Origin: Mobula hypostoma
Lineage: Eukaryota
Length of the DNA: 64,000 nucleotides
Direction: 5' to 3'
Assembly (NCBI RefSeq): GCF_963921235.1
Contig: NC_086097.1
Location: 4,464,001 to 4,528,000 of the forward strand
The notes beneath the pieces are model-generated. The model was not told the origin of the DNA and ran no database searches. It saw only the letters and a program-made list of their open reading frames with translations. This document shows, one piece after another, positions 1,905-52,475 of this stretch (positions are counted from its first letter, which is position 1; each line of letters opens with the position of its first letter). The position numbers and the translations under genes were made by a program.

Positions 1905-2049
1905 CTTTGATAATTTTACAGGCTGTTCAGATATTCCAGAAAAGTTTGCATAGTTAGTAAATGCATCTTCGATACCCATGGAGCTCAGTAGGGGTTTGAG
2001 TTTGTAAGCTGTCTTCAACGTCATCTTTGGGAAATGCACATCTACAGAT
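1905..2049 (-). CDS. SERPINA1-like: Serpin copy 1, third coding exon (145 nt); last exon lies outside the window
   Basis: Hand translation SVDVHFPKMTLKTAYKLKPLLSSMGIEDAFTNYANFSGISEQPVKLSK; acceptor catgacag, donor AAG|gtaaac; phase fits the previous exon. Not in the ORF track. Confidence 0.92.
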
Positions 2050-2240
2050 CTGTCATGAACATAACACCAGAAGGGTATTGTATCATCTCACGTTTTCTCA
2101 CATCTTAGTTTTTTAAACTTTAACTGATAAATAAATTAAACTAACACAAAGGAAATCTAAAAATTAGTGCAACACACACAAAATGCTGAAGGAAAACAAC
2201 AGATCAGGCAGCATCCATGGATTCAAGGTTCAGGTTCAAG

Positions 2241-5200
2241 GTGGAAAGCAGCCAGTGAGTGAGTGGGCCAGTGAAGGAGTGGAGCTTTAAGGCTTTGACT
2301 CGAGAGATTCTGGCAGTTTTGGTAGTTGGTCTGTGCAATCAAGTCAATCAAGATTTGAATATATCAGCAGAAAGCCGTTGATTAGACCATCAAGATTTGA
2401 ATAGCTCAGACTCAGCAGAAAGCAACTGATTGGGCAATCGAGGTAAGGTGACCAAGCATTTTGAAAAGCTCAAACAGATTAAATAGAGGGATAGCTCAAG
2501 CAGAGTGGCCTGTGGAAAGTGTCCAGTGAGTGAATGGGCCAGTGAAGGAGTGGAGCTTTGAGGCTTTGACTCGAGAGGTTTTGACGAGAAGAGGCGGAGG
2601 ACGAGCTAGCTCGCAGTTAGTCTTTACAATGCCTCCTGAGACGGTGATGTGCCTATCATGTGAGATGTGGCAGTCTTGGGGGAACGCCCCTCTCCTGCAG
2701 AGTCACATCTGCCAGAAGTGCATACGGCTGGGTGATCTGGAAGACCGTGTAAGGAATCTGCAGCAGCAGCTGGATGACCTTCATCTCATAAGGGAGAATG
2801 AGGCAGTCATAGATGAGAACTACAGGGAGGTAGTCACACCTAGGCTGTTGGAAGCAGGTCGTTGGGTGACAATCAGAGGGGGGAAAGCGAAGATGAGCAG
2901 ACAGGTAGTGCAGAGCACCCCTGTAGCCATTCCCCTGAATAATAAGTTTATCGTCCTGGATACTGTTGGCGGGGACAACCGACCAGGTGTGAGCCACGGT
3001 GGCAGGGCCTCCAGCACTGAGTCTGACCCGGTGGTGCAGAAGCGTGGGACGGAGAAGAGGAGAGCTGTCGTCATTGGAGACTCTATAGTCAGGGGAGAAG
3101 ACAGGAGATTTTGTGGACGTGAGAAGGACACCCGCATGGTTTCTTGCCTCCCGGGTGCCAGGGTTCAGGATGTCTCTGACCGGGTGCACAACATCCTGGT
3201 ACGAGAGGGAAAGCAACCAGAAGTCGTGATACATGTTGGCACCAACGACATAGGCAGGAAGAAGGATGAGATCCTGAAGTGTGAGTTTCAGGAATTAGGC
3301 AGAAGGCTGAAGAACAGGACCTCAAGGGTGACGTTCTCAGGATTGCTGCCAGTGCTACGTGACAGTGATGGTAAGAATTGGAGGGGATAGCAGTTGAATT
3401 TGTGGCTGAGGAGTTGGTGCAGGGAGCAGGGTTTTAGATTTTTGGATCATTGGGACCTCTTCTGGGGAAGGTGGGACCTGTACAGATTGGATGGCTTGCA
3501 CCTGAACTCGAGGGGGAGCAATATCCTTGCAGGTAGGTTTGCTAGCATGGTTCGGGAGGGTTTAAACTAATTTGCAAGGGGGATGGGACCCAGAGCGATA
3601 GAGCAGTGAAAGAAGTGCATGGAGTAAAGCCAGATCTAACATACAGAGAGGCTTTGAGGAAAGAGAAGCAGAATAAACGGTGTAAAGACAGTAAGGTAGA
3701 AGGGCTGAAATGTGTGTACCTCAATGCAAGAAGCATCAGGAACAAAGGTGATGAACTGAGAGCTTGGATACATACATGGAATTATGAAGTAGTGGCCATT
3801 ACAGAGACTTGGCTGGCACCAGGGCAGGAATGGATTCTCAATATTCCTGGATTTCAGTGCTTTAAAAGGGATAGAGAGGGGGGGAAGGGGAGGAGGGGTG
3901 GCATTACTGGTCAGGGATACTATTACAGCTACAGAAAGGGTGGGGAATGTAGCAGGATCCTCTTTTGAGTCAGAATGGGTGGAAGTCAGGAACAGGAAGG
4001 GAGCAGTTACTTTATTGGGGTTATTCTAGAGGCCCCCGGTAACAGCAGAGATACAGAGGAGCAGATTGGGAGGCAGATTTTGGAAAGGTGCAAAAATAAC
4101 AGGGTTGTTATCATGGGTGACTTTAACTTCCCTAATATTGATTGGCACCTGATTAGTTCCAAGGGTTTAGATGGGGCAGAGTTTGTTAAGTGTGTCCAGG
4201 ATGGATTTCTGTCACAGTATGTGCACAGGCCGACTAGGGGGAATGCCATACTAGATCTAGTACTAGGTAATGAACCGGGTCAGGTCACAGATCTCTCAGT
4301 GGGTGAGCATCTGGGGAACATTGAGCACTGCTCCCTGGCCTTTAGCATTATCATGGAAAAGGATAGAATCAGAGAGGACAGGAAAATTTTTAATTGGGGA
4401 AGGGCAAATTATGAGGCTATAAGGCTAGAACTTGTGGGTGTGAATTGGGATGATGTTTTTGCAGGGAATTGTACTATGGACATGTAGTCGATGTTTAGAG
4501 TTCTCTTGCAGGATGTTAGGGATAAATTTGTCCCAGTGAGAAAGATAAAGAATGGAAGGGTGAAGGAACCATGGGTGACAAGTGAGGTGGAAAATCTAGT
4601 CAGGCGGAAGAAGGCAGCATACATGAGGTTTAGGAAGCAAAGATCAGATGGGTCTATTGAGGAATATAGGGAAGCAAGAAAAGAGCTTAAGAAGTGGCTG
4701 AGAAGAGCAGGAAGCGGGCATGAGAAGGCCTTGGTGAGTAGGATAAAGGGAAACCCCAAGACATTCTTCAATTATGTGAAGAAAAAAGGATGACAGGAGT
4801 GAAGGTAGGACCGATTAGAGATAAAGGTGGGAAGATGTGCCTGGAGGCTGTGGAAGTGAGCGAGGTCCTCAATGAATACTTCTCTTCGGTATTCACCAAT
4901 GAGAGGGAACTTGATGATGGTGAGGACAAAATGAGTGAGGTTGATGTTCTGGAGCATGTTGATATTAAGGGAGAGGAGGTGTTGGAGTTGTTAGAATACA
5001 TTAGGACGGGTAAGTCCCCGGGGCCTGATGGAATATTCCCCAGGCTGCTCCACGAGGCAAGGGAAGAGATTGCTGAGCATCTGGTTAGGATCTTTATGTC
5101 CTCGTTGTCCACGGGAATGGTACCGGAGGATTGGAGGGAGGTGAATGTTGTCCCCTTGTTGAAAAAAGGTAGTAGGGATAGTCCGGGTAATTACAGACCA

Positions 5201-6562
5201 GTGAGCCTTATGTCAGTGCTGGGAAAGCTGTTGGAAAAGATTCTTGAAGGTAGGATCTATAGGCATTTAGAGAATCATGGTCTGATCAGGGACAGTCAGC
5301 ATGGCTTTGTGAAGGGCAGATCGTGTCTAACAAGCCTGATAGAGTTCTTTGAAGGGGTAACCAGGCATATAGATGAGGGTAGTGCAGTGGATGTGATCTA
5401 TATAGATTTTAGTAAGGCATTTGACAAGGTTCCACACGGTAGGCTTATTCAGAAAGTCAGAAGGCATGGGATCCAGGGAAGTTTGGCCAGGTGGATTCAG
5501 AATTGGCTTGCCTGAAGAAGGCAGAGGGTGGTGGTGGAGGGAGTACATTCAGATTGGAGGATTGTGACTAGTGGTGTCCCACAAGGATCTGTTCTGGGAC
5601 CTCTACTTTTCATGACTTTTATTAACGACCTGGATGTGGGGGTAGAAGGGTGGGTTGGCAAGTTTGCAGACGACACAAAGGTTGGTGGTGTTGTAGATAG
5701 TGTAGAGGATTGTCGAAGATTGCAGGGAGACATTAATAGGATGCAGAAGTGGGCTGAGAAGTGGCAGATGGAGTTCAACCCAGAGAAGTGTGAGGTGGTA
5801 CACTTTGGAAGGACAAACTCTAAGGCAGAGTACAAAGTAAATGGCAGGATACTTGGTAGTGTGGAGGAGCAGAGGGATCTTGGGGTACATGTCCACAGAT
5901 CCCTGAAAGTTGCCTCACAGGTGGATAGGTTAGTTAAGAAAGTTTATGGGGTGTTAGCTTTCATAAGTCGTGGGATAGATTTTAAGAGTTACGATGTAAT
6001 GATGCCGCTCTATAAAACTCTGTTTAGGCCACACTTGGAGTACTGTGTCCAGTTCTGGTCGCCTCACTATAGGAAGGATGTGGAAGCATTGGAAAGGGTA
6101 CAGAGGAGATTTACCAGGATGCTGCCTGGTTTAGAGAGTATGCATTATGATCAGAGATTAAGGGAGCTAGGGCTTTGCTCTTTGGAGAGAAGGAGGATGA
6201 GAGGAGACATGATAGAGGTGTACAAGATAATAAGAGGAATAGATAGAGTGGATAGCCAGCGCCTCTTCCCCAGGGCACCACTGCTCAATACAAGAGGACA
6301 TGGTTTTAAGGTAAGGGGTGGGAAGTTCAAGGGGGACATTAGAGGAAGGTTTTTTACTCAGAGTGGTTGGTGCGTGGAATGCACTGCCTGAGTCAGTGGT
6401 GGAGGCAGATACACTAGCGAAGTTTGAGAGACTACTAGACAGGTATATGGAGGAATTTAAGGTGGGGGCTGATATGGGAGGGAGGGTTTGAGGGTCAGCA
6501 CAACATCGTGGGCCGAAGTCCCTGTACTGTGCTGTACTATTCTGTGTTCTATGTTCTATGTT
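2241..6562 (+). mobile_element. Near full-length CR1 LINE, disrupted, specific to unit A
   Basis: ORF1 2530-3390 (CxxC...CxxC, coiled coil, GDSIVR/PGA/HVGTND); ORF2 pieces 3606-6391 with ITETW, MGDFN, SPGPDG, DFSKAFD, PQGS, FADD; (TTCTATG)n tail; absent at 35000-35020 in unit B. Confidence 0.93.
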
Positions 6563-6689: not shown

Positions 6690-9590
6690 AGAGGAGGTAA
6701 AAGGGGGTGGGGTGCGGGATGCGGGGAGCAGCACTACTAATCAGGGACAATATCACAGCTGTACTCAGGGTAGACAATGGAGGGGTCAGATGTCAGATGC
6801 TGAGTCATTTGGATAGAACTCAGGAATAGGAAGGGTGCAATCACACTGATGGGATTGTACCACTGACCCCTAATAGCCAACGGGACATTGAGGAACAGAT
6901 ATGTAGTCAGATTAAGGAAATGTGTAAAAATATTAGGGTCGTTGTCATGGGGGATTTTAAACTCCCTAATATAAAATGGGAGCTTCTTAGTGTAAAGGGT
7001 TTAGATGGGGCAGAATTTGTTAAGTGTATCCAGGAAGGTTTCTGAAATCAATATATGGACAGTCCAACGTGAGGAGCGGCCGTACTGGACCTGGTGTTGG
7101 GTAATGGGCCTGACCAGAGGTGACTGACCTTTCAATGGGTGAACAGTTAGGCAACGGTGACCTCAACTCCTTGAATTTCAGGATAGCGATAGATAAGAAC
7201 AGGTATGGTCTTTGTGGGAGAGCTTTAAATTGGAATAGGGCAAATTAAGAGGATGTTAAGCAGGAACTAAGAAGCGTTATTTGGGAACATCTTTTCTCTG
7301 GAAAGTCCACATCAGACATGTGGAGTGTGTTTAAAGATGAATTGTGCAGAGTGCAGGAAAGATATGTTCCTGTTAGAAGGAAGGACAGGGTTGGAAAGAT
7401 AAGAGAACCTTGGATGTCAAGAACTGTGATGAATTTAGTCAGGAAGAAAAAGAAAAAGTATGTAAAACTTCAAAAGTTAAGATCAAATGAAGCACATGAG
7501 GAGTACAAAGAAGCCAAAAAAGAACTTGAGATGGGAATTAGGAAAGCCAGGAGAGGCCATGAAAAGTCCTTGGCAAGTAGGATTAAGGTGAATCCAAAGG
7601 AATTCTGTACTTACATCAAGAGCAAAAGGATAATGAGGGAGAGAGTGGGATCACTCAACGATAAAGAGGTGAACATTTGCAGAGATGCAGAGAATCTGAG
7701 TGAGGTACTTAGTGAGTACTTTGCTTCAATATTTATCAAGGAAAAAGGATTTGGAAGATCAGGGGATCAGTACTGCATGTATATTTACATTATATTTACA
7801 TGTATATTTACAGAGTTCAAGGAGAAGGAAGTGTTGGGCCTTCTGATGAGAATTAAGGTGGATAAGTCCCCAGGACCTGATGGGATTGAAGGATGCAAGA
7901 GACGAGATTGCTGGGCCCTTGACGGATATCTTCATGTCCTCTCTGGCCACAGGCAAGGTCCCAGAGGACTGGCGAGTGGCTAATGTTGTGCCTTTATTTA
8001 AGAAGAGGCAAGGGAAAATCCTGTGAACTACAGACCAGTGAGTCTCATGTCAGTTGTCAGGAAATTGCTGGAGAAAATTCTTAGGGATAGGATATATGAG
8101 CATTTGGCCTAATTAGGGAGAGTCAAGTGGCTTTGTATGGGGCAGGTCGTGCCTTACCAACTTGATTGAGTTTTTTGACAAGGTGACGAGAGAGATTGTT
8201 GAGGGAGGGCAGTGTCTACATGGATTTTAGGAAGACATTTGACAAAGTCACTCATATAAGACTAATCCAGAAGATTAAAATGCATGGTGATTTGGCTGTT
8301 TTTATTCAAAACTGGCTTGCTCATAGAAGACACAGGGTAATGGTTGAAGGGACTTATTCCATAAGACCATGAGACCATAAGACACAGGAGCAGAGATTCG
8401 AGCTGGAGGTCTGTAATTAGCGGCGTTCCACAGGGATCTGTGCTGGGACCTCTGCTGCTGTGATGTTTATAAATGACCTGGATGAAACTGTAGGTGGGTG
8501 GTTTAGTAAGTTTTCAGATGTACCAAGATTGGTGGAGTTGTCGATGGTGTAGAAGACTGGAGCATTGGAGGTTGAGAGGAGACCTGACTGAGGTTTACAA
8601 GATTATGAAAGGCATAGATCCTGAAGGCATAGAGGGACTATCTGTTTACCAGGGTTGAAATGTCTCATGCCAGAGGGCATGCATTGAAGGTGAGAGGGGG
8701 TAGGTTCAAGGGGGCTGTGAGGTGTAAGTTTTATACCTAGAGAGTCATAGGAGCCTGGAATGCGCTGCCTGGTATGGTGGTAGAGGCAAATACATCAGAG
8801 GCTATTAAGAGATGTATGGATAGGCACATGGATGTAAGGAAGATGGAGGGATATGGACATGGTGTAGGTAGGAGGGATTCGTGTTTGGTTGTTTTTGATT
8901 TGCATTTTAGCTGGTTTGGCACAACACTGTGGGCCGAATGGTCTCTTCGTGTGCTGTCTATGCTCCATCATGACTTGTGTCACTGGTAATAAATCTGACT
9001 CTGAAGAAGGCATTTGGCTTGTTTGTCTTCATTAGTCCTTGAGTTCAAAAGTTAGGAGGTTATGTTGCAACTTTATAAAACTCTGGTTAGGCCACATCTG
9101 GAGTATTGCATACAGTGCTGGTCACCTCATTATAGGAAGGATGTTGAGGTTTTGGAGAGAGTGCAGCCGAAGTTTACCAGGATGCTGCCAGGATTAGAGA
9201 GCATGTGCTATAATGAGACGTTGGATGTACTTGGTTTTCTTTTCTGTGGAGCAGTGAAGGCTGAGATGAGATGTGATAGCAACGAATGGCCTGTTCCTGT
9301 GCTGCACTGTTGAATGTCCTATTTTCTATGTTGCCCCTTTGGAGTAGAGATAAGGAGGAACTTTGTTAGTAAGAGGGTGGTAAATCACTGCCAGGGATGA
9401 CTGTGGGGATCAAGTCATTGAGTATATTTAAAGTGGAGGTTGATAGGTTCTTGATTAGTCAGGGCATCAAAAGTTACAGGGTGAAAGCAAGAGAATGGGG
9501 TTGAGAGGAATAATAAATCAACCATAATGGATTGGTGGGGCAGATATGATGGGCTGAATGGCCTAATTTTGCTCCTGCGTCTGATGGTCT
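6690..9590 (+). mobile_element. Old degenerate CR1 fragments predating the duplication
   Basis: APE/RT remnants (MGDF, SPGPDG, RPHLEYC); shared with 35160-36037 plus 41958-44400. Confidence 0.8.
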
Positions 9591-9670: not shown

Positions 9671-9941
9671 TGCTTTTGCATTGACAACGAGAGATGATCA
9701 AATCTTTGAACGGTCAGTTTCCGCTCCAGCTCTGCCAATTTTCCAGATTTCGGTAGCAAAATCAATAGGGAGGTATTTCCTGCATATTCCATCAGAAGCG
9801 CATCACTGGAGAGGTCCTCGGCATATGTCCAGTAATACATTCCTGTCCTTCTCATCATGTGAACTCTCACTGTTGTTCTGTCGTCGACATGAAAATCAGC
9901 TTCATAAGTGTGCTTAGTGTCAAAAGGCTGCAACCATTCAC
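9671..9941 (-). CDS. SERPINA1-like: Serpin copy 1, second coding exon (271 nt)
   Basis: tttctccag|GT GAA TGG completes FKG-EW; motifs PFD, FHVD, VRVHMM, LILLP; donor CA|gtaagt (phase 2). Confidence 0.93.
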
Positions 9942-12900
9942 CTGGAGAAATCAAAGAGATAAGCGTACTCAGGTAATTTGAAGACCCTGACCTGGAGTTA
10001 CACTCTGACTTCGGTTCTTTGCAGGAATGGGACCTGCTCATGCGGCCTCATAACTGTCGGCTTTTCGATATGCCAAGGACATGGCCTGGAAGACTAACGT
10101 GCCTCCGGGGTGCCGGATTTTTGTGGCTCTGGAGACGGGCTGATTCAAGGCCAGTGCTGCCACCGATGACGACTGATGTGTCACAGGAGAATGAGGAAGA
10201 TCGGAAGCAGCAGGCTGGCTGCTGGCTGTGTGCCCAGAGGCACAGAGCTCGGAAAAAGCGATGCAACAGACTTTTAACACCGTAGATCAACGAGTTGTTC
10301 TGCTACGTCTCCCCTCTCGCTGTGAAACGGGGACACCTCTTTTTCCCTCATTAGAGAAAGAGAGCCTGTGGTATGTCGAATACCGGGTGAGCGAGTAGTC
10401 TTTGGGCAAGTCTGTGTCTTTACTGATGCTTTGCTGCATGCTTGAGTGGGGCGCCACCGATTAAGGGGAATGTGAAGGGAAACTCCTTCACTCAGAGGGT
10501 GGTGAGGGTGTGGAAGTAGCTGCCAGTGCAAGTGCTACATGCAAGGTACTTGGATGGGAGGGGTACAGAGGGCTCTGGTCACGTGCAGCTCGATGGAAGG
10601 AGGTGGTTTACATGGTTAGGCTCAGATCAGATGAGCCAGATGAGACAAATGGCTTATCTCTGCTGTGCTTTTCTATGGCTTCTTATACCTTGCCTACTGT
10701 CTCAAGGCTGGGTGTGTCTGCCCCTGTACCAAGCCCACCCCCACCCATGACACTCCTTCTGTGCCATCGGTCCCACACTCCTTCTGCTGCCCTCCACCCT
10801 CCCCATTCCCAACATCCTTTCCTCCCGCCAGATTTACAAACTTGTTCTCCACTGCACGTTAACAAATACAGAACTGTGCAAAGGTCTTAGGTACACGAGC
10901 TATATGTATGTGCCTGAGACTGTCACACAGAACCGTAGCTGGACACAACATCATTGCCAAATGGCCTTTTCTCTGCTGTAACGTTTTCTGTTCAAACCAA
11001 TTTCCTGGCCATGATTTTATTCCTTTCTTGATGTTAACCAACAGACTGTAATCGGAAACACAAGAGGTTCTTTAGTTTCTGGAAATCCAGAGCAACACAC
11101 AAAAAAATGCTTGAGGAACTCAGCAAGTCAGGCAGCATCTGTGGAGGAGAATGACCAGTTGACATTTTGGGCCAAGCCCCTTCTTCAGGCTGATAAAGGA
11201 AGGAGAGGGGGTTGGAGAAAGAAGTTTGAGCTGGCAGATGATAGGTGAAACCATGTGAAGATGAAGGTGATTAAGTGGGACATGGGAGATGAGGTGAGAA
11301 GCTGGGAGGTGATGGGTGGAAGAGGTAAAGGGTTAAGAAGAAGGAGTCGGATAGTAGAGGAGAGTGTACCATGGGAGAAAGGGGAAACAGAGTGAGGTGA
11401 TGGAGAAGAAAATGGGTAAGAAGTGAGACAAAATGGGGAATAGCAGAAGAGAGAAGAGGGAGGTGGGAGAAATGACCAGAACTTGAGGTTGATGTTCAGA
11501 TTAATCTTGTCTTTTCTCTATGTTCAGTACGCAGAGCAACACACTTATAATGATATTGATGCTGCCAGTGGGAAATAAGCAACGTGCTAACTAGAATGCT
11601 AAAAGTGATCAGTGTGGGTACAGAATGTAAACCACAGGTACAGAACAGTTTCTCTACCTCTACTGAATTACAAATACTGCTAACATCCACTGAGGAATGG
11701 AATTGCTCTTTGCAGAAATTATAAAAGGAAATGGAGCCAATAACTTATTTTGTTGTTAGTCGCCCTTATTGAATCAATTGCTAGTTAGACACACGTCTCA
11801 AAGTAATTCATTGGGTTTGATGATTTTTGTGTCATATTGAGAACTTGTAGGTAGTGCAAGTTCTTTCCTTGAATACTCCCGTCTCTACCAATGACTCAAT
11901 CAGTGCGCCATGTCTGATCATGAGTCTTCTTAACAATGAAACTATAATTTGAATGAACAAGCGCCAAAAAGGAAAAGGAAAACAAACAAGAGAAACAGAC
12001 CATAAGATATAGGAGCAGAAGAAGGCTATTTGGCCCATTGAGTCTATTCTACCATTTCATCATGTTTGATCTATTTCCCTCTCAGCCCCAATCTCCTGCC
12101 TTCCCTCCTGTAACCCTTTATGCCATAACCAATCAAGAGTCTATCAATCTCTGCCTTAAATATACCTCATGACATAGTTTGAAATATGACCCAAAGATAG
12201 TTTGATGTAAGAGAGTTTCGAGCGGATCAAAGTAAAACTCATATCGGAGGAGAGATGGACAGAGATGTTTATGTTTGACTTTATTTATTTGGCGATACAG
12301 GGCAGAGTGGGCCCTTCTGGCCCTTCGAGCCACACCATCCCAGCAACCCCCACCACCCACAAACCCAATTAATCCTAACCTAATCACCAGTCAATTTACA
12401 ATCACCTATTAACCTATCCGGGACGACTTTGGAAACTGGAGCACCCAGAGGAAACCCACGCGTTCCATAGGAATGATGTACAGAGGCTCCTTACAGAACA
12501 GAATTCCAAACTCTGGAATGTCACACTAGCCGCTACCCTACTGTGGTGCCCCTGTGTGTGAGAGATGCACAGGATCAAGGATCAAGGATCAAGGAGAGGT
12601 GTACAAGATGGAGAACAGAGAGAGATCTGCAACTCCAGTGCATAACTTTAAAAATATGTGGAACTTCCTGGTGGTCAAACTTTTTAATTTCTCCTTTCCT
12701 CTTCCAATATGTTGGTCCATGGCTTCCTCTTGTGCCATGATAAGGCCATCCTCAGTGTGGAGGACTAACACCTTGTATTCCATCTGGGTGACCTCCAACC
12801 TGATGGAAGGAATATCAATTTCTTTTTACAGTTTAAAAAAAACGTTTACCTCCTCCTCCCCTTTACTATTCCCCTCCCTGTCCTCTTACCTGTTCTCACC

Positions 12901-14086: not shown

Positions 14087-14705
14087 CTTTGAACAAGATA
14101 TAGTTGAGAAGAAACATCAAAGTATCCGATGAGAGGGGCTCTTTAAGGAAGTCTGGGATTTTGCCATTGGTTTTGCTATTCACATAAGCATTTATTTTGT
14201 CTTTTGTACTTTGTTGTTCATGAAAATCAACAGTCACTGTTTCTGCATTATAAAATTCCTCGGCTTCTTTGAGGAACTTTTCATGAATTTCTTTTCCGTT
14301 TTGAACATACAGAGAGCTTCCCATGTGGATTCCAACACTCACATTGTTCAAATGCTCCAGAAGCTGGGGGAATGTCTCCCTCACGGCGACAGCACCATTG
14401 TTTGTCATGTTGCTGTATCCAAGAACCTGCAGGAGCTGAGCCCGAGTTCTTTCCTTGGCACCCAATGACAACATGCTCAGGGAGGCAGAGATGCTCAGTG
14501 GAGAAAAGAAAATATTTTGGGAAGCTGTGTCTGGTTGAGTGGCAATCTGTCTGTACAGACGCAATGCAAATTCTGAATTTGCTGCTGAGAGGCTGAGAAG
14601 GGAAGGATATGGGGTAAATTCATTGACAGCAGAGGCATATCCACTGACCATGCCACTGGAAGGCAAAGCCACCATCAGGAAAGCAAAAGCAAGCAACTTC
14701 TCCAT
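14087..14705 (-). CDS. SERPINA1-like: Serpin copy 1, first main coding exon (signal peptide to strand 3A), alpha-1-antitrypsin-like
   Basis: Hydrophobic leader MEKLLAFAFLMVAL; serpin motifs NSEFALRLY, NIFFSPLSISASLSMLSLGA, INAYVNSKTNGKI, LLNYILFKG. Acceptor ttttactttgcag at 14713 and donor G|gtaag at 14086 (phase 1). Confidence 0.93.
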
Positions 14706-26705: not shown

Positions 26706-26733
26706 ATAAGGAAATGTCTCATTGCTATAGAAA

Positions 26734-28480: not shown

Positions 28481-28719
28481 ACAGATTTAACACCAGCCTA
28501 AGTACATTTCCACCCACCCACCATCCAGGACATGCTCTCTTCTTGCTGCTGCCATGAGGAAGAAGGTAGAGGAGCCTCAGGACCCCCACTACCAGGTTCA
28601 CAAAGAGTTATTCCACCTCAACCATCAAGCTCTTGATAACTTCACTCATCCTAAGTTTCAAATGTTCCCACAAACTATGAACTTACTTTCAAATGTTCTC
28701 AGTATTTATTGCTTATTTG

Positions 28720-34688: not shown

Positions 34689-34833
34689 CTCTGATAATTT
34701 TAGAGACCCTTCAGATATTCCAGAAAAGTTTGCAAGGTGAGTAAATGCATCTTCGATACCCATGGACCTCAGTAGGGGTTTGAGTTTGTAAGTTGCCTTC
34801 AGCGTCATCTTTGGGAAATGCACATCTACAGAT
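34689..34833 (-). CDS. SERPINA1-like: Serpin copy 2, third coding exon (145 nt)
   Basis: Hand translation SVDVHFPKMTLKATYKLKPLLRSMGIEDAFTHLANFSGISEGSLKLSE; AG/GT sites intact. Confidence 0.92.
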
Positions 34834-36394
34834 CTGTCATGAACATAACACCAGAAAGGTACTGTATCACCTCAAATTTTCTCACATCTTAGTTTTTTAA
34901 ACTTTTACTGATAAATAAATTAAACTAACATAAAGGAAATCTAACAATTAATGCAACACACACAAAATGCTGGAGGAAAACAACAGATCAGGCAGCATCT
35001 ATGGATTGAAGGTTCAAGATTGTTTTATATAATTTCCAGTACACAGGTCCAAAGGAGAATAAAATAATTGAAACTCCGGGTCTGATGCAGCTGCAAAAGA
35101 ACACATTAAGACAAACACAATAACTGGAAAAGATAGAGGAGGTAAAAGAGGGGGTGGGGTGGGGGATGTGGGGAGCAGCACTACTAATCAGGGACAATAT
35201 CACAGCTGTACTCAGGATAGACAATGGAGGGGTCAGATGTCAGATGCTGAGTCATTTGGATAGAACTCAGGAATAGGAAGGGTGCAATCACACTGATGGG
35301 ATTTTACCACTGACCCCTAATAGCCAACGGGACATTGAGGAACAGATATGTAGTCAGATTAAGGAAATGAGTGAAAATAGTTGTTGTCATGAGGGATTTC
35401 AACCTCCCTAATATAAAATGGGAGCTTCTTAGTGTAAAGGGTTTAGATGGGGCAGAATTTGTTAAGTGTATCCAGGAAGGTTTCTGAAATCAATATGTGG
35501 ACAGTCTAACAAGAGGAGGGGCCGTACTGGACCTGGTGTTAGGTAATGAGCCTGGCCAGAGGTGACTGACCTTTCAGTGTGTGAACAGTTAGGCAATGGT
35601 GATCTCAACTCCTTGAATTTCAGGACAGCGATAGATAAGTATAGGTATGGTCTTTGTGGGAGAGCTTTAAATTGGAGTAGGACAAATTTAGAAGATGTTA
35701 AGCAGGAACTAGGAAGCGTTATTTGGGAACACCTTTTCTCTGGAAAGTCCACATCAGACATGTGGAGTGTGTTTAAAGATGAATTGTACAGAGTGCAGGA
35801 AAGATATGTTCCTGTTAGAAGGAAGGACAGGGTTGGAAAGATAAGAGAACCTTGGATGTCAAGAGCGGTGATGAATTTAGTCGAGAAGAAAAAGAAAAAG
35901 TATGTAAAACTTCAAAATTTAAGATCAAATGAAACACATGAGGAGTACAAAGAAGCCAAAAAAGAACTTGAGATGAGAATTAGGAAAGCCAGGAGAGGTC
36001 ATGAAAAGTCCTTGGCAAGTAGGTTTAAGGTGAATCCTTTCTTTCTTTTTAAATCTTTTTATTGAGTAAGTATACAAAAAAGGTAAGCCATATAAACATT
36101 AATACAATGTTAAAGTATAATAAAATTCCAAAAGATAACAATACCAAAAAGAAAATACTACAAACAATGTAATTTAAACATAAGAAACCAAGATAACATA
36201 ATAGTATACTAGATTTTATATATATCAATGGAAAAAAAGAAAAAAAAAACCCCAAAAAAAAACCCACCGTGCAACTAACTAAAAGCAAAGCAAAGCAATG
36301 GGCTAACTTGAAACCAAACAGAGTTAAACTTAAAATCACGTCCTCAATCCCGACCTCCATTAAAACAGTGAAGAGAAAACAAGAAGGGTAAATA

Positions 36395-40171: not shown

Positions 40172-40889
40172 AAATCCTAAAGTCAACCCATAACAAGGAG
40201 GATTGACAATAGGCGCGACCCACAGACCCGGAGAGGAAACAGAACATACAAAAGATACCGGGGAAAAGGACGTAACCAATACTTCAATAATGTATATAGC
40301 CCAAAGAGAAACAAACTAAAACGTGAAGCCCCTCCCACCGCCCCCCACCCCAGGACCCCAAGGCGAAATCTAAAGCAGACCCGCCAGAAAGAAGCAAGCG
40401 CTAAAACTACCCCCATGACTTCCGGTATACGCTCCCTAAAAAAAAGGTATAAATATGAAAAGGATCAGCTAATTGTAAAACAGTAAAAAATAAGTAAAAA
40501 AAAGTTAGCTCAATTAAAATACACACAGAACAGAACAAAAGCCGGAAAGTATATATTAAAAAAAACCACAATAAACCTCAAACTCATGAATAGACACAGC
40601 AACAAAAAAAATAGGATTATTAACATAAAATGATTATAAAAAGCAAAACAGAATAAAATTTAAAAAAAACTACAAAATTTAAGGCCGCACAGGAAATACG
40701 TAAGATGACAAAAGGGAAGTAACCACCCAGAATCCCCTGGGAAAAGAAAGAAATGACGCAGTTAAAAAGAAAGTTTAGCAGCCATATTAAGAAATCGAAA
40801 GTAAACTTTTCTGCCCAAATAGGGCACAGAAAAGTTAAAACCAACCAATTCACAGCCTCCGATCAACGGAGAAAATTAAAAAAAGGCAA

Positions 40890-41789
40890 TTAAGATGTTG
40901 AAGATGAAAGTTGATCCAGATAACTCTGGGCATCCGATGGAGAATCAAAAAAACGAAGAGCTCCATCTAACATGCGAATCCTTAGACGTGCAGGGTACAG
41001 CAGCGCTGGTCTTAAATCCATCTTATAGAATTCCGACATCACGGATCTGTAACGGACCCGTTGGTCCCAGATTGGTTTACTGAAATCTTCCACGAATCGG
41101 AACTTAAGATCCGAAAAATCAATGAAACCTTTAGATCGAGCGAATCGAAACAGTCTCTCCTTATCTTGAAAGTAATGAAAACGTAAGATAACATGCCTAG
41201 GTCTATCTGACCTAGACGAGTATGATGGGATTCTGTGAACACGATCCAGTAGCGGTGGTTGGTCAGGAAATACAGTAGGGAATGCATCTTTTAAAAGTTG
41301 GGAGAAATATTTCATAGGGTTGTTAGCTTCCACGGCTTCCCTGACGCCAATCATTCGTAAATTCTGCCGTCGCATTCTAGATTCCAAGTCAGAGTTTTTA
41401 AAAGTCAAAAAGTCAAGTTTCTTCTTCATTACATTAATTGTTTCTTCGACTTTCCCCATCTTAAGCTCACTTTGTTGCGCGGATTTTTGAAGACCAGATA
41501 TAGCCGACTGATGTTCCGCAATACATGTTTGCATCTTATCAATTAAATCGGCAATTTTCTGGAACTTAGTTGAGATTTCCATATGAATCAGGTCTTTAAC
41601 AAAGCCCATAATTTCTGTACGAATCATCTCCCTAACAGAGGTTGAAATTTCCCTCTGAATTAACTCCGATATAGCTTCCAAAGTCACCGGTGATTCAGTC
41701 GGAGGGAGATCCGTAGCTTTCGGTTTAACCGGAGGTTTACCATCCTTGCCGTCTTTCCCGTTCTTAGACATAGCAGATCTAAGTTCCAT
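40890..41789 (-). CDS. L1 ORF1p (coiled coil, RRM, C-terminal domain)
   Basis: 299-aa open frame with DLESRMRRQNLRMIGVRE, LDRVHRI, RPRHVILRF, FVEDFS, LLYPARL. Confidence 0.9.
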   Translation of the reverse strand: MELRSAMSKNGKDGKDGKPPVKPKATDLPPTESPVTLEAISELIQREISTSVREMIRTEIMGFVKDLIHMEISTKFQKIADLIDKMQTCIAEHQSAISGLQKSAQQSELKMGKVEETINVMKKKLDFLTFKNSDLESRMRRQNLRMIGVREAVEANNPMKYFSQLLKDAFPTVFPDQPPLLDRVHRIPSYSSRSDRPRHVILRFHYFQDKERLFRFARSKGFIDFSDLKFRFVEDFSKPIWDQRVRYRSVMSEFYKMDLRPALLYPARLRIRMLDGALRFFDSPSDAQSYLDQLSSSTS

Positions 41790-41957
41790 CCAATTGTCAG
41801 AGAATTCAGTTTAATTCAAAGTATTGTAAAAATTGATGCCTTAATAGTTAATTAAAGTATAGCTGACCATAGAGAGAAAAAACTCAGAGGTAATGGAGCG
41901 AGTCAAGAACGCGACTTCACTCCATGAGCGCTACCGGAAGTCTCCTAAGGTGAATCC

Positions 41958-44483: not shown

Positions 44484-44754
44484 CGGTTTTCCATTGACGA
44501 CAAGAGATGATCAAATCTTTGAACGGTCAGTTTCCGCTCCAACTCTGCCAATTTTCCAGATTTCGGTAGCAAAATCAATAGGGAGGCATTTCCTGCATAT
44601 TCCATCAGAAGCACTTCACTGGAGAGGTCCTCGGCATATGTCCAGTAATACATTCCTGTCCTTCTCATCATGCGAACTCTCTCTGTTGTTCTGTCGTCGA
44701 CATGAAAATCAGCTTCATAAGTGTGCTTAGTGTCAAAAGGCTGCAACCATTCAC
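44484..44754 (-). CDS. SERPINA1-like: Serpin copy 2, second coding exon (271 nt)
   Basis: GEWLQPFD...LILLP...SMEN; acceptor tttctccag, donor CG|gtaagt. Confidence 0.92.
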
Positions 44755-45805
44755 CTGGAGAAATCAAAGAGATAAGCGTACTCAGGTAATTTGAAGACCC
44801 TGACCTGGAGTTACACTCTGACTTCGGTTCTTTGCAGGAATGGGACCTGCTCATGCGGCCTCATAACTGTCCGCTTTTCGATATGCCAAGGGCATGGCCT
44901 GGAAGACTAACGTGCCTCCAGGGTGCCGGATTTTTGTGGCTCTGGAGACGGGCTGATTCAAGGCCGGTGCTGCCACCGATGACGACTGATGTGTCACGGG
45001 AGAACAAGGAAGATCGGAAGCAGCAGGCTGGCTGCTGGCTGTGTTCCCAGAGGCACAGAGCTTGGAAAAAGCGATGCAACAGACTTTTAACACCGTAGAT
45101 CAACGAGTTGTTCTGCTACGTCTCCCCTCTCGCTGTGAAACGGGGACACCTCTTTTTCCCTCATTAGAGAAAGAGAGCCTGTGGTATGTCGAATACCGGG
45201 TGAGCGAGTAGTCTTTGGGCAATTCTGAGTCTTTACTGATGCTTTGCTGCATGCTTGAGTGGGGCGCCACCGATTAAGGGGAATGTGAAGGGAAACTCCT
45301 TCACTCAGAGGGTGGTGAGGGTGTGGAAGTAGCTGCCAGTGCAAGTGCTACATACAAGGTACTTGGATGGGAGGGGTACAGAGGGCTCTGGTCACGTGCA
45401 GCTCGATGGAAGGAGGTGGTTTACATGGTTAGGCTCAGATCAGATGAGTCAGATGAGACAAATGGCTTATCTCTGCTGTGCTTTTCTATGGCTTCTTATA
45501 CCTTGCCTACTGTCTCAAGGCTGGGTGTGTCTGCCCCTGTACCAAGCCCACCCCCACCCATGACACTCCTTCTGTGCCATCGGTCCCACACTCCTTCTGT
45601 CGCCCTCCACCCTCCCCATTCCCAACATCCTTTCCTCCCGCCAGATTTACAAACTCGTTCTCCACTGCACGTTAACAAATACAGAACTGTGCAAAGGTCT
45701 TAGGTACACGAGCTATATGTATGTGCCCCAATCTCCTGCCTTCCCTCCTGTAACCCTTCATGTCATAACCAATCAAGAATCTATCAATCTTTGCCTTAAA
45801 TATAC

Positions 45806-48800
45806 ATAGAACATAGAACAGTATAGCACATTACAGGCCCTTCGGCCCACAATGTTGTGCCGACCCTCAAACCCTGCCTCCCATATAACCCCCCACCTTA
45901 GATTCCTCCATATACCTGTCTAGTAGTCTCTTAAACTTCACGAGTGTATCTGCCTCCACCACTGACTCAGGCAGTGCATTCCATGCACCAACCACTCTCT
46001 GAGTAAAAAACCTTCCTCTGATATCCCCCTTGAACTTCCCACCCCCTACCTTAAAGCCATGTCCTCTTGTATTGATCAGTGGTGTCCTGGGGAAGAGGTG
46101 ATGGCTATCCACTCTATGTATTCTTCTTATTATCTTGTACACCTCTATCATGTCTCCTCTCATTCTCCTTCTCTCCAAAGAGTAAAGCCCTAGCTCCCTT
46201 AATCTCTGATCATAATGCATACCCTCTAAACCAGGCAGCATCCTGGTAAATCTCCTCTGTACCCTTTCCAATGTTTCCACATCCCTCCTATAGTGAGGTG
46301 ACCAGAACTGGACACAGTACTCCAAGTGTGGCCTAACCAGAGTTTTATAGAGCTGCATCATTACATCGCGACTCTTAAACTCTATCCCTCGACTTATGAA
46401 AGCTAACACCCCATAAGCTTTCTTAACTACCATATCTACCTGTGAGGCAACTTTCAGGGATCTGTGGACATGTACCCCGTGATCCCTCTGCTCCTCCACA
46501 CTACCAAGTATCCTGCCATTTACTTTGTACTCTGCCTTGGAGTTTGTCCTTCCAAAGTGTAGCACCTCACACTTCTCTGGGTTGAACTCCATCTGCCACT
46601 TCTCAGCCCACTTCTGTATCCTATCAATGTCTCTCTGCAATCTTTGACAATCCTCTACACTATCTACAACACCACCAATCTTTGTGTCGTCTGCAAACTT
46701 GCAACCCACCCTTCTACCCCGACATCCAGGTCGTTAATAAAAATCACGAAAAGTAGAGGTCCCAGAACAGATCCTTGTGGGACACCACTAGTCACAATCC
46801 TCCAATCTGAATGTACTCCCTCCACCACCACCCTCTGCCTTCTGCAGGCAAGCCAATTCTGAATCCACCCAGCCAAGCTTCCCTGGATCCCATGCCTTCT
46901 GACTTTCAGAATAAGCCTACAATAGAACCATAGAACCATAGAAACTACATCACAGAAACAGGCCCTTTGGCCCTTCTTGGCTGTGCCGAACCATTTTCTG
47001 CCTAGTCCCACTGACCTGCACACGGACCTAGTCCCACTGACCTGCACACGGACCATATCCCTCCATACACCTCCCATCCATGTGTCTGTCCAATTTATTC
47101 TTAAATGTTAAAAAAGAACCCGCATTTACCACCTCATCTGGCAGCTCATTCCATACTCCCACCACTCTCTGTGTGAAGAAGCCCCCCACTAATGTTCCCT
47201 TTAAACTTTCCCCCCCTCACCCTTAACCCATGTCCTCTGGTTTTTTTCTCCCCTTGCCTCAGTGGAAAAAGCCTGCTTGCATTCACTCTATCTATACCCA
47301 TCATAATTTTATATACCTCTATCAAATCTCCCCTCATTCTTCTACGCTCCAGGGAATAAAGTCCGAACCTATTCAACCTTTCTCTGTAACTGAGTTTCTC
47401 AAGTCCCGGCAACATCCTTGTAAACCTTCTCTGCACTCTTTCAACCTTATTTATATCTTTCCTGTAATTTGGTGACCAAAACTGAACACAATACTCCAGA
47501 TTCGGCCTCACCAATGCCTTATACAACCTCATCATAACATTCCAGCTCTTATACTCAATACTTTGATTATTAAAGGCCAATGTACCAAAAGCTCTCTTTA
47601 CGACCCTATCTACCTGTGATGCCACTTTTAGGGAATTTTGTATCTGTATTACCATTAACCCTGTATGTTCTACGTTGGTTTGTCCTTCCAACGTGCAATA
47701 CCTCACACTTGTCAGTATTAAACTCCATCTGCCATTTTTCAGCCCATTTTTCCAGCTGGTCCAAGTCCCTCTGCAGGCTCTGAAAACCTTCCTCACTGTC
47801 TACTACACCTCCAATCTTTGTATCATCAGCAAACTTGCTGATCCAATTTACCACATTATCATCCAGATCATTGATATAGATGACAAATAACAATGGACCC
47901 AGCACTGATCCCTGTGGCACACCACTAGTCACAGGCCTCCACTCGGAGAAGCAATTCTCTACTACCACTCTTTGGCTTCTTCCATTGAGCCAATGTCTAA
48001 TCCTATTTACCACCTCTCCATGTATACCTAGCGACTGAATTTTCCTAACTAACCTCCCATGCGGGACCTTGTCAAAGGGCTTACTGAAGTCCATGTAGAC
48101 AATATCCACTGCCTTCCCTTCATCCACTTTCCTGGCAACCTCCTTGAAAAACTCCAATAGATTGGTCAAACATGACCTACCACGCACAAAGCCATGTTGA
48201 CTCTTCCTAATAAGTCCCTGTCTATCCAAATGCTTGTAGGTTCTGTCTCTTAGTACTCCCTCCAATAATTTACCTACTACCGACGTTAAACTTACTGGCC
48301 TATAATTTCCCGGATTACTTTTCGATCCTTTTTTAAACAACAGAACAACATGAGCCACTCTCCAATTCTCCGGCACCTCACCTATAGACAGCGACATTTT
48401 AAATATTTCTGCCAGGGCCCCTGCAATTTCAACACTAGTCTCCTTCAAGGTTCGAGGGAACACCCTGTCAGGTCCCGGGGATTTATCCACTTTAATTTTC
48501 CTCAAGACAGCAAGGACCTCCTCCTTTTCGATCTGTACAGTTTCCATGATCTCACTACTTGTTTCCCTTAATTCCACAGACTTCATGCCAATTTCCTTAG
48601 TAAATACAGACGCAAAAAACCTATTTAAGATCTCCCCCACTTCCTTTGGTTCCGCACATACCCCGACCACTCTGATCTTCAAGAGGGCCAATTTTATCCC
48701 TTACAATCCTTTTGCTCTTAATATACCTGTAAAAGCTCTTTGGATTATCCTTCACTTTGACTGCCAAGGCAACCTCATGTCTTCTTTTAGCCCTCCTGAT

Positions 48801-49943
48801 GTCTTTCTTAAGTATTTTCTTGCTCTTCTTGTACTCCTCAAGCACCTTATTTACTCCCTGCTTCCTATACATGTCATACAACTCCCTCTTCTTCTTTATC
48901 AGAGTTGCAATATCCCTTGAGAACCAAGGTTCCTTATTCCTATTCACCTTGCCTTTAATCCTGACAGGAACATACAAATTCTGCACTCTCAAAATTTCTG
49001 CCTTGAAGGCTTCCCACCTACCGATCACATCCATGCCAGAGAACAACCTGTCCCAATCCACGCTTTTTAGATCTTTCCTCATTTCTTCAGATTTGCCCTT
49101 CCCCAATTAAAAATTTTCCCCAGTTAAAAATTATATCCTTTTCCATGATAATGCTAAAGGCCAGGGAGCGGTGGTCACTGTCTCCCAGATGCTCACCCAC
49201 TGAGAGATCTGTGACCTGACCCGGTTCATTACCTAGTACCAGATCTAGTATGGCATTCCCCCTAGTCGGCCTGTGCACATACTGTGATAGGAATCCGTCC
49301 TGGACACACTTAACATACTCTGCCCCATCTAAACCCTTGGAACTGACCAGGTGCCAATCAATATTAGGGAAGTTAAAGTCACCCATGATAACAACTGTTA
49401 TTTTTGCACCTTTCCAAAATCTGCCTCCCAATCTGCTCCTCTGTATCTCTACTGCCACCTGGGGGCCTACAGAATCCCCCCAATAGAGTAACTGCTCCCC
49501 TCCTGTTCCTGACTTCCACCCATACTGACTCAAAAGAGGATCCTGCTACATTACCCACCCTTTCTGTAGCTGTAATAGTATCCCTGACCAGTAATGCCAC
49601 CCCTCCTCCCCTCCCCCCCTCTCTATCCCTTTTAAAGCACTGAAATCCAGGAATATTGAGAATCCATTCCTGCCCTGGTGCCAGCCAAGTCTCTGTAATG
49701 GCCACTACATCATAATTCCATATATGTATCCAAGCTCTCTGTTCATCACCTTTGTTCCTGAAGCTTCTTGCATCGAGGTACACACACTTCAGCCCTTCTG
49801 CCTTACTATCTTTACACCGTTTATTCTGCTTCTCTTTCCTCAAAGCCTCTCTATATGTTAGATCTGGCTTTACTCCATGCACTTCTTTCACTGCTCTATC
49901 GCTCTGGGTATCATCCCCCTTGCAAATTAGCTTAATTTAGTTT
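45806..49943 (-). mobile_element. Composite CR1 insertion (family 1 with a family 2 element inside), specific to unit B
   Basis: 45806-46920 and 49091-49930 match the 2241-6562 family; 46921-49090 is a different CR1 with its own (GTTCTATG)n tail; empty site near 12165 in unit A. Confidence 0.88.
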
Positions 49944-51856
49944 AATACCCTATGACATAGTTTGAAATACACCCCAAAGATAATTCGATGTAAGAGAGTT
50001 TAGAGCACTTCAAAGTAAAACTCTATCGGAGGAGAGATGGACAGAGATGTTCATGTTTGACTTTATTTATTTGGCGATACAGGGCAGAGTGGGCCCATCT
50101 GGCCCTTCGAGCCACACCGTCCCAGCAACCCCCACCAACCACAAACCCAATTAACCCTAACCTAATCACCAGCCAATTTACAATCACCTATTAACCTATC
50201 CGGGACGACTTTGGAAACTGGAGCATCCAGAGGAAACCCACGCGTTCCATAGGAATGATGTACAGAGGCTCCTTACAGAACAGAATTCCAAACTCTGGAA
50301 TGTCACATTAACTGCTACCCTACTGTGGTGCCCCTATGTGTGAGAGATGCACAGGATCAAGAAGAGGTGTACAAGATGGAGAACAGAGAGGGATCTGCAA
50401 CTCCAGTGCATAACTTTAAAAATAACTTAAAAAAACAATGTGGAACTTCCTGGTGGTCAAACTTTTCAATTTCTCCTTTCCTCTTCCAACATGTTGGTCC
50501 ATGGCTTCCTCTTGTGCCATGATAAGGACATCCTCAGTGTGGAGGACTAACATCTTGTATTCCATCTGGGTGGCCTCCAACTTGATGGTAGGAATATCGA
50601 TTTCTCCTTCCGGTAAAAAATTACCTCCTCCTCCCCTTTACTATTCCCCTCCCTGTCCTCTTACCTCTTCTCACCTGACTGTCACCCCCCCCCCAATGCG
50701 TCACCTCTTCATTCCTTTTCTCTCATGGTCCACCGTCCTCTCCTATCAGATTCCTTCTTCTCCAGCCCTTTACCTTTCCTATTCACCTGGCTTCACCTAT
50801 CACCTTAGCTATCGTCCTTCCCCATTTTTTATACAAGCATCTTCTTTCCTTTCCAGTCATGAAGAAGCTCTCAGCCCTAAGTGTTGACTGTTTATTCATT
50901 TCCATAGATGCTGCCTGACCTGCTGAGTTCCTCCAGTATTTAGTATGTGTTGCTCTGGTTTTCCAGCATCTGCAGTATCTCATAATTATTAAAAATAAAA
51001 TATAACCAAACAAATATTGCATTCTTTGGATCAATATTTCAAATACCTAAAATAAAATAAATATATTGTCTTGAAAATTGATTACTGTTCAATTCACTTT
51101 AAGTTCCCTGAGAAATTTTTTTTTATAAATAGAATACAGTTCTAAGTTTTCTGGTTAACTAACAACAATCTTGCATAGAGCCACACAAATTAACAATGCA
51201 TTCAGAAATGTTTGAATTACAGGTAATTCTGACATCATCAATTTGGGGACATCAGTGTAAAAAATGGGAATTCATGCACTGATGTATAAACTTTTAAATG
51301 GTTAGATTTTCAAATTCTTGCATTGCATAACATGGGTGGTGGGGTGGAGAGACATCTCTACCAAAGGAAGTGTAAGGCCCTCCTTCCTTTCACGAGCTTG
51401 CAGCTCACCCTAGGCAAGGTGCAGCACCTACTTAGACTCCCCCCGCACCCCCCATCCCATCAGGATGAAGCCACGGGAGCAGGTAGTGGGTGGTCGTATG
51501 AGCAGCTGGTGCATATCACAAGTCCTGGATATGCAACCACTGCACTAGGCAGATAATCTCTGAAGAGTATTGATAATGACTGGGCTCACCCATCTTGTAA
51601 AGACACTGCCCAGAAGAAAGCAATAGCAAATCACTTCTGTCAAAAAATTTGCCAAGAACAATCATTATCATGGAAAGACAATGATCACTCATGTCATACA
51701 ACAGGGTGCATAACGAACAAACAATTGCAAAACACCCCTACCCTCACAGAGCATATAAAGATGTTTAGAAATTGTCCTACTCAATATACAGAAGTTGAAG
51801 CATCAACTGATTCAGTCATTAAATGATGTGTGTTTAACATCCAAATGACATCTTAC

Positions 51857-52475
51857 CTTTGAACAAGATATGGCTGAGAAGAAACATCAGAGAATCCGGT
51901 AAGAAGGGCTCTTTAAAGAAGTTTGGGTTTTTGACGTGGGTTATGTCACTCACATAAGCATTTATTATGTCTTTTGTACTTTGTTGTTCACGAGAATCAA
52001 TCCTCTCTATGGTGGCATTATAATATTCCTCGGCTTCTCTGAGGAACCTTTCATGAATTTCTTTTGTGTTTTGAACATACAGAGAGATTCTAATGTGGAT
52101 TCCATCACTCACATTGTTCAAATGCTTCAGAAGCTGGCGGAATGTCTCCCTCACGGCGACAGTACCATTGTTTGTCATGTTGCTGTATCCAAGAACCTGC
52201 AGGAGCTGAGCCCGAGTATTTTCCTTGGCACCCAATGACAACATGCTCAGGGAGGCAGAGATGCTCAGCGGAGAAAGGAAAATATTTTGGGAAGCTGTGT
52301 CTGGTTGAGCGGCAATCTTTTTGTACAGACGCAATGCAAATTCTGAATTTGCTGCTGAGAGGCTGAGGAGGGAAGGGTGTGGGGTAGATTCATTGACAGC
52401 AGAGGGATATCCACTGACCATGCCACTGGAAGGTAAAGTGACCATCAGGAAAGCAAAAGCAAGCAACTTCTCCAT
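51857..52475 (-). CDS. SERPINA1-like: Serpin copy 2, first main coding exon
   Basis: Gap-free paralog of 14087-14705 with identical splice sites and an open frame. Confidence 0.92.

Follow-up and report, generated by a model that had tools for sequence, protein, structure and literature searches.

Diversifying selection on alpha-1-antitrypsin-like serpin paralogs in the devil ray Mobula hypostoma

We analysed a 64,000-nucleotide stretch of the Mobula hypostoma genome (G000:C1:4464001-4528000, hereafter the window), which carries two close paralogous serpin genes on the minus strand, copy A and copy B, and compared the divergence of their exons with that of their introns and flanks. Gene models were built by tblastn of the identical NCBI proteins with splice sites read directly from the DNA, and exons are numbered so that exon 2 is the first coding exon, bearing the ATG. 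The spliced products of A and B are the annotated M. hypostoma NCBI proteins P0001 and P0006. In copy A, exon 2 (14087-14705, 619 nt) runs from the putative signal peptide to the start of strand 3A; P0001 matches it at 99.5% identity by tblastn, its donor GT was read directly, and its 12-base flank is common with B. Exon 3 (9671-9941, 271 nt, Pfam Serpin E=1.2e-21) and exon 4 (1905-2049, 145 nt) follow, each with AG/GT boundaries. The last exon of A, exon 5, which encodes the reactive loop, lies ~83 kb downstream and outside the window at G000:C1:4382614-4382802, where a search of the ray genome recovered residues 351-412 of P0001 at 100%. Copy B consists of exon 2 (51857-52475, 619 nt, P0006 at 99.5% identity by tblastn), exon 3 (44484-44754, 271 nt) and exon 4 (34689-34833, 145 nt), the latter two placed by tblastn and AG/GT, and a last coding exon with the stop codon (28072-28260, P0006 residues 346-407 at 100%), which encodes strand 5A, the reactive loop and strands 1C, 4B and 5B.

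In exons 2-4 of both copies, every internal boundary is AG/GT, no indels are present and both frames are open, in agreement with the preliminary description of this DNA, which had been made from the letters of the window. The full coding sequences of A, B and two further copies, D and E (see below), are each 1224 nt, open and alignable without gaps. The duplicated unit of copy A (1-22624) comprises exons 2-4, introns and ~8 kb of upstream DNA, runs past the left end of the window and is collinear with 33087-58168 in a self-blast chain. That of copy B spans 26703-58168, of which the part 26703-32085 is collinear with the DNA around the distant exon 5 of A. Intron 4 of A, at ~83 kb, is far longer than that of B (6.4 kb) or of D and E (4-6 kb); since both of its ends are collinear with the intron of B, ~78 kb has been inserted between them.

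The exon translations of A and B match Pfam Serpin (PF00079) above the gathering score, with E values of 7.5e-48 (exon 2 of A) to 5.6e-22. Among solved structures, the best-matching relatives are conserpin and alpha-1-antitrypsin (E=1e-74 to 1e-79), and full-length B matches alpha-1-antitrypsin chains at E=1e-74. The hinge of inhibitory serpins has a consensus of Glu at P17, Gly at P15, Thr/Ser at P14 and small residues at P12-P9. The P17-P9 segments of A (E-E-G-T-K-A-T-A-V) and B (E-K-G-T-N-S-T-A-V) fit this consensus broadly. In B, D and E, P12 is Ser, a position occupied by Ala in 99% of 70 homologues; B carries an N-S-T sequon at P13, and E has Ile at P14. Three introns interrupt the coding sequence, the first behind base 1 of codon 207, the second behind base 2 of codon 297 and the third at the end of codon 345; these codons align to alpha-1-antitrypsin residues 192, 282 and 331 (192a, 282b, 331c). 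Introns at these positions are the signature of vertebrate serpin group V2 (PMC4476131), and by intron position A and B belong to this group (alpha-1-antitrypsin-like, clade A/D).

An AlphaFold2 model of B from a 76-sequence alignment reached a pLDDT of 82.3, with loop residues 359-369 below 50; a first model from a 14-sequence alignment (pLDDT 49.6) was discarded. The top Foldseek matches of the predicted structure are native alpha-1-antitrypsin (TM 0.85/0.93, rmsd ~2 A), and B is thus modelled with the native serpin fold and an exposed reactive-centre loop. The hydrophobic N-terminus was modelled as a helix (residues 3-13) at low confidence. The model comprises strand 2A (126-135), helix E (142-152), strand 1A (154-159), helix F (164-179), the following loop (180-196), strand 3A (197-205), strand 5A (343-354) and the reactive loop (~355-375), names that we take to apply from the order of the elements in the serpin fold.

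Alignment of A and B gave 56/619 nucleotide differences in exon 2, 11/271 in exon 3 and 12/145 in exon 4, a total of 79/1035 (7.6%). At the protein level, 61/345 residues differ, with 8 codons differing only synonymously and 9 carrying multiple hits, and the differences fall on codon positions 1/2/3 as 33/32/14. The hand counts of the preliminary description (56/619, 11/271, 12/145 and 79/1035, with ~61 residues and ~8 synonymous codons) were reproduced exactly. Over the full coding sequence, that is, with exon 5 of A added, 103/1221 nucleotides and 81/407 residues differ. Non-coding divergence across ten collinear blocks was 567/12423 gap-free columns, or 4.56% (3.0%-8.6% per block). The median 300-base non-coding window had 14 differences, and the exon level was reached in 3/41 such windows. 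This shows that the exons have diverged more than the surrounding DNA (Fisher p=3.8e-5), as had been proposed. The intron divergence of 1-3% proposed at the same time did not hold, because the samples behind it came from unusually similar stretches adjoining exons: the 9/300 differences at 9961-10260 were found again, and the 'about 2' differences in 160 bases at 1741-1900 resolved into 1 mismatch and 1 gap column. Non-coding stretches that are nearly identical between A and B lie at 10451-10750, 8980-9279 and 21602-22501 (2-5 differences per 300 bases vs the median of 14), and all four paralogs are very alike in the block of intron 2 that immediately precedes exon 3 (1.7-3.6%). Such near-identical stretches could reflect local gene conversion or the conservation of elements for regulation or splicing.

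The exon excess lies in replacement sites. For exons 2-4 of A and B, four methods gave dN of 0.088-0.099, dS of 0.037-0.050 and omega of 1.8-2.7. Pairwise likelihood, in our own Goldman-Yang implementation with three codon-frequency models, gave omega of 2.7-2.8 and rejected omega=1 (2dlnL 9.7-10.6, p=0.0012-0.0018), which bears out the adaptive dN excess claimed from the raw counts. Replacement divergence (68/806) exceeded non-coding divergence (567/12423) nearly twofold (p=5e-6), and synonymous divergence (11/229) was at the non-coding level (p=0.87). Omega rose to 3.5 over the full coding sequence (p=3e-5) and was 3.07 without the reactive loop (p=3e-4). The coding frame is also constrained: with 38 gap openings in 12.4 kb of non-coding DNA, 3.2 indels would be expected in 1035 nt at the same rate, and none is present (P(0)=0.04). 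Taken together, the pairwise test (p=0.001-0.002), the branch test described below (p=0.0024) and the comparison of dN with 12.4 kb of non-coding DNA (p=5e-6), all from our own implementation and four taxa, point to positive selection.

Such an excess might be produced artificially, by exon hypermutation, CpG decay, multi-nucleotide mutations, or collapsed or misassembled haplotypes. The 9 multi-hit codons and a run of ~8 changed bases in 15 at codons 154-158 of A would suit this account, as would CpG sites that are slightly denser in exons (4.8%) than in non-coding DNA (3.3%). Omega nevertheless remained at 2.75 (p=0.004) when the multi-hit codons were dropped and at 2.93 (p=0.001) when codons 154-159, which contain the A-specific cluster, were dropped. 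Removal of CpG sites left a divergence of 6.9% in exons vs 3.85% in non-coding DNA (p=1.7e-5), and the synonymous sites of the same exons are not elevated. Furthermore, A and B carry different transposon insertions, and their products match separately annotated proteins. We therefore consider an artefact highly improbable.

A genome search with a paralogous protein identified the two further close copies, D (=P0005) and E, ~0.9 Mb from A/B and on the opposite strand. Over the 6,908 non-coding columns common to all four, pairwise distances were 4.5% (AB), 4.6% (BE), 4.6% (DE), 4.9% (BD), 5.2% (AE) and 5.4% (AD). Informative non-coding sites split as AB/DE 56, AD/BE 27 and AE/BD 22, which supports (A,B),(D,E) weakly. 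A protein tree joins E to M. birostris P0003 (386/407 identical) and places A next to P0002 (362/407) and D next to P0004, the forks of A and D having support below 80; B stands alone on the longest branch. Since A, D and E each pair with an M. birostris protein, the duplications predate the split of the two Mobula species. A and B are thus not the pair of young paralogs that they had been taken for, but members of a four-gene burst with non-coding distances of 4.5-5.4%, older than the split from M. birostris.

Changes found in one lineage only (exons 2-4, replacement:silent) numbered 32:6 in A, 26:1 in B, 10:7 in D and 7:7 in E, and A+B differed from D+E (p=3e-4). Relative to the non-coding singleton rate of the same lineage, the replacement rate was 1.85 in A (p=0.003) and 2.10 in B (p=0.001), as against 0.61 in D and 0.48 in E. 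Consistent with this, a two-ratio likelihood model of exons 2-4 gave omega(A,B)=2.58 vs a background of 0.69; it fitted better than a single ratio (p=0.0018) and better than a model with omega(A,B) set to 1 (p=0.0024), and the conclusion was the same under all three topologies. Among the four paralogs, the acceleration is specific to A and B.

The changes are concentrated in two places. One is the reactive-centre loop, which in B occupies 28168-28230 (codons 356-376, P17 to P4', minus strand), with the reactive bond P1-P1' predicted at Met372-Ser373. Between A and B, dN was 0.33 in the loop (21 codons), 0.18 in exon 5 and 0.09 in exons 2-4, with a loop dS of 0.03, and the four-gene omega of exon 5 was 3.56 (p=0.0026). 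The other is a body hot spot in codons 124-202, at 14100-14336 in A and 51870-52106 in B (both minus strand): 30/79 residues differ here, against 31/266 in the rest of exons 2-4 (p=5e-7), and the A-B omega is 4.3 (p=0.009). On the model of B, these codons span strand 2A, helix E, strand 1A, helix F, the helix F-strand 3A loop and the start of strand 3A. Change had been described as spread over the serpin body rather than the loop. That view was not supported once exon 5 of A, which lies 83 kb outside the window and so could not be compared at the time, was included: the loop is the fastest part, and half of the body changes fall in codons 124-202. The classical picture, in which the reactive loop is hypervariable, is therefore upheld, and the body hot spot is additional to it, not a replacement. 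Ortholog pairs differ at 45 (A-P0002), 45 (D-P0004) and 21 (E-P0003) residues with no concentration in codons 124-202, so the hot spot belongs mainly to the B lineage, together with one cluster in A.

Alignment to Met358 of human alpha-1-antitrypsin predicts P1 to be Leu (A), Met (B), Arg (D) and Asn (E), and the M. birostris proteins have Met, Arg and Arg at this position. P1 differs even between presumed orthologs: A has Leu where P0002 has Met, and E has Asn where P0003 has Arg. Copy B alone carries G137T, F161S, I183N, L191F, N201S and I388L, replacing residues common to 80-100% of 70 non-Mobula homologues, and most B-only replacements at otherwise conserved residues lie in its hot spot. 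Together with some other copies, B also carries G129R, Y202H, V231E and A361S (P12) at residues kept in 80-100% of the 70 homologues. N-glycosylation sequons number 4 in A, 9 in B, 8 in D and 8 in E; five A-B differences toggle sequons, and those at 296 and 360 are unique to B, the latter at P13 of the hinge.

The cluster in A consists of four consecutive codons, 155-158 (window ~14232-14243), changed in A only. Here ~8/15 bases at codons 154-158 differ from B, D and E, and the change removes a sequon carried by B, D, E and the three M. birostris proteins. No donor for this change was found in gene C, a more distant serpin gene upstream of B, or by a genome-wide pattern search. Gene C has a different sequence at this place. 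The pattern search returned A itself, 1 place with 2 mismatches (contig C81) and 5 with 3, with 1 hit for the control; the place on C81 is not a serpin.

These distributions bear on an explanation by concerted evolution, in which the introns understate the age of the paralogs because gene conversion among the four copies keeps making them, and most of the exons, uniform, except at functionally differentiated codons, where converted alleles are selected against. The excess would then be old variation that has been kept rather than new change fixed rapidly, which is still diversifying selection but by another mechanism. Several observations are of the kind that such exchange would leave: the non-coding sites are divided over the three groupings (56, 27 and 22); B is closest to D in codons 1-123 (7/369 nt) and closest to A in exons 3-4; 38/81 A-B differences have both states shared with other copies; the protein and non-coding trees disagree; dS in the hot region is 0.09 for A-B (0.07-0.17 for other pairs), higher than the 0.02-0.06 of the flanking exon parts for A-B; and some non-coding stretches are nearly identical (2 differences in 300). 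The overall dS of 0.04-0.05, however, equals the divergence of the introns (0.046), and the exons therefore hold no older layer of silent change. The six non-coding distances are near-equal (4.5-5.4%) despite the ~0.9 Mb and the opposite orientation that separate A/B from D/E, whereas ongoing local conversion should make neighbours much more alike. Moreover, the excess is mostly unique to A (32N) or B (26N) rather than made of shared states, and the clustered change of A has no donor among the sequences searched. We regard concerted evolution, the foremost competing account, as an unlikely main source of the pattern. Its specific form in which introns are homogenised while exon dS keeps the age of an older split, named beforehand as an outcome that would refute selection, was not seen: dS is 0.037-0.050 beside 0.046 in introns, and with silent divergence at the non-coding level and replacement divergence nearly twice that level, this scenario is ruled out.

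Relaxed constraint would offer another account, with B, and perhaps A, as a redundant copy drifting towards a pseudogene and a dN/dS of ~1 raised by sampling noise. B has lost residues kept in 80-100% of the 70 homologues, its exon 2 scores 30 bits below that of A against Pfam, it forms the longest branch of the protein tree and it has no annotated M. birostris partner; A-B differences also fall at sites slightly more variable than average (entropy 1.64 vs 1.42, p=0.047). Yet omega=1 was rejected for the body (p=0.002), the full coding sequence (3e-5) and the A and B branches (0.0024), and the replacement rates of A and B are ~2x their own non-coding rates (p=0.003 and 0.001), with 26N:1S in B. 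No stop or frameshift is present in the four copies and the splice sites are intact. Copy A, furthermore, is transcribed and spliced. In sequencing run X1, a very deep contig equals A exactly, with 27 differences from B over 51950-52276, which is the A-B count there, and its loose ends match A only, including the exon 3-exon 4 junction. Reads mapped to the window were deepest on transposon copies, and only A was exactly identifiable. Contigs in three public sequencing runs also join 44754 to 51857 exactly, at the predicted exon 2-3 splice; they differ from B by 6-8% and therefore come from paralogs or orthologs of B. Relaxed constraint is accordingly quite improbable in our judgement.

We thus favour the reading that A and B are functional secreted alpha-1-antitrypsin-like serpins under positive diversifying selection, with the bait loop retargeted and the helix F face tuned, and give it a probability of about 0.7. 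A, B, D and E stem from a four-gene burst of duplications in devil rays, and since then the A and B lineages have fixed amino-acid changes at ~2x the neutral DNA rate. Selection would have been strongest on the reactive-centre loop, which acts as bait and so determines the protease that a serpin captures, and next strongest on one face of the body, made of strand 2A, helix E, strand 1A, helix F and the loop to strand 3A. This face controls the insertion of the loop and is a site of cofactor binding in other serpins. The likely driver would be retargeting of the presumably inhibitory products to different host or parasite proteases, through an arms race or subfunctionalisation.

Several points weigh against this reading. 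The count test within exon sites alone is marginal (68N vs 11S, Fisher p=0.068, with 229 synonymous sites). Outside codons 124-202 and the loop exon, the A-B omega is 2.1 (p=0.057), and for the other five paralog pairs the body omega is 0.45-1.9. The likelihood tests come from our own implementation on four sequences rather than from PAML or HyPhy. The protein tree groups B with D and E, whereas non-coding sites weakly favour A with B; this disagreement indicates that the genes are mosaics, for which single-tree tests are approximate. At 38/81 A-B residue differences, both states recur in other paralogs or in M. birostris proteins. The run at codons 155-158 of A may be a single mutational event. 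For B, the losses of conserved residues would look alike under loss of constraint, and no closer annotated M. birostris protein was found as its partner in the protein collection searched. The transcript of B itself was not seen, no run holding more than 0.26 of the sampled words of its exon 2; since no holder was recorded as RNA and 45% of B 31-mers also occur in A, D or E, this search is uninformative on B expression either way.

A variant of the favoured reading is that B is no longer an ordinary antitrypsin. Here the 26N:1S burst of exons 2-4 would have remodelled the end of helix F, the loop to strand 3A and an Asn of the shutter region, at residues invariant in 70 other fish and shark homologues, and the hinge would have gained a sequon at P13. 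The helix E/helix F/strand 1A face of PAI-1 binds vitronectin. The changes in B could similarly create a new exosite or cofactor surface, or could alter metastability and yield a non-inhibitory binder or a decoy for parasite proteases. We think such a change of mechanism unlikely; if true, B would offer a datable example in which the mechanism of a serpin has changed and not just the bait.

Selection of the kind favoured here for A and B has parallels in other serpins. Rodent SERPINA1/SERPINA3 clusters are reportedly the subject of studies by Barbour 2002, Forsyth 2003, and Hill & Hastie 1987. One analysis describes gene-wide diversifying selection, a hypervariable loop and P1 switching between paralogs in these clusters, with 8/48 and 9/37 MEME sites in the loop and 40/48 and 28/37 outside it (PMC12646145). 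The ray genes resemble them in being tandem clade-A duplicates with a variable reactive loop, P1 switching and selected body sites. They differ in belonging to a cartilaginous fish and in numbering only four copies, as two pairs ~0.9 Mb apart in opposite orientation. In the ray, moreover, the whole-gene pairwise omega of ~3.5 is unusually high and the body signal is concentrated on the strand 2A-helix F-strand 3A face. Primate SERPINB3/SERPINB4 are a duplicate pair with positive selection in the reactive loop and at a few body sites, including SERPINB3 163-171 (PMC4136820). Selection on both loop and body is thus common to that pair and the ray pair, and by rough, unaligned numbering the SERPINB3 sites may lie near helix F and the following loop. 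Unlike the ray genes, this pair is clade B, intracellular, of different gene structure and with known targets (cysteine vs serine proteases). Human SERPINA1 (native structures 1QLP, 3CWM and others) is the best structural match to B (TM 0.85/0.93, ~37% identity), has the same three intron positions and shares the Met-Ser reactive bond with B by alignment. It is, however, a single-copy gene under ordinary constraint, whereas A and B differ at 20% of residues with silent sites at ~5%.

Full-text literature searches found no paper on ray or Mobula serpins. The genes described here are a real case of diversifying selection, of a kind known from tandem clade-A serpin clusters and here present in a cartilaginous fish; the rule of diversification under selection in such clusters, known from rodents, is thereby extended to cartilaginous fishes. 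A whole-gene dN/dS well above 1 is rare, and in this case the duplication itself supplies a neutral standard for it, in the form of 12 kb of introns and flanks. The four copies are close natural variants in P1 (Leu/Met/Arg/Asn), in the helix F region and in sequon number (4 vs 8-9), and such variants could be used to study how regions other than the reactive loop tune the specificity of serpins and the kinetics of loop insertion.

The window also holds part of gene C. Its last exon lies at 61898-62083 (minus strand), upstream of B, and is its only exon in the window; further exons were located at G000:C1:4542290-4566645. The exon 2 product of gene C is 52% identical to P0005, and its reactive loop is different.

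Transposable elements and repeats occupy the introns of both copies. A full-length L1-type LINE at 36038-41945, in intron 3 of B and absent from A, has open reading frames on the minus strand, at 36395-40315 (ORF2, 1306 aa, endonuclease and reverse transcriptase) and 40890-41810 (ORF1, 306 aa, L1 RBD-like domain), and looks like a recent insertion that followed the duplication. Two LINE copies of one reverse-transcriptase-bearing family, ~94% identical, lie at 2233-6554 (plus strand, intron 3 of A) and 45728-49944 (minus strand, intron 2 of B); their different introns and opposite orientation indicate independent insertions after the duplication. In the repeat-rich DNA between the units, a 382-aa open frame at 25429-26577 (minus strand) matched nothing in Pfam at E<=1e-5 and probably belongs to a transposable element. 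A ~137-base tandem repeat is present at 1094-1425 in intron 4 of A, with related copies at 33722-34350 and 26725-27215 (intron 4 of B), and this repeat region is the most divergent part of the A/B alignment (8.1%).

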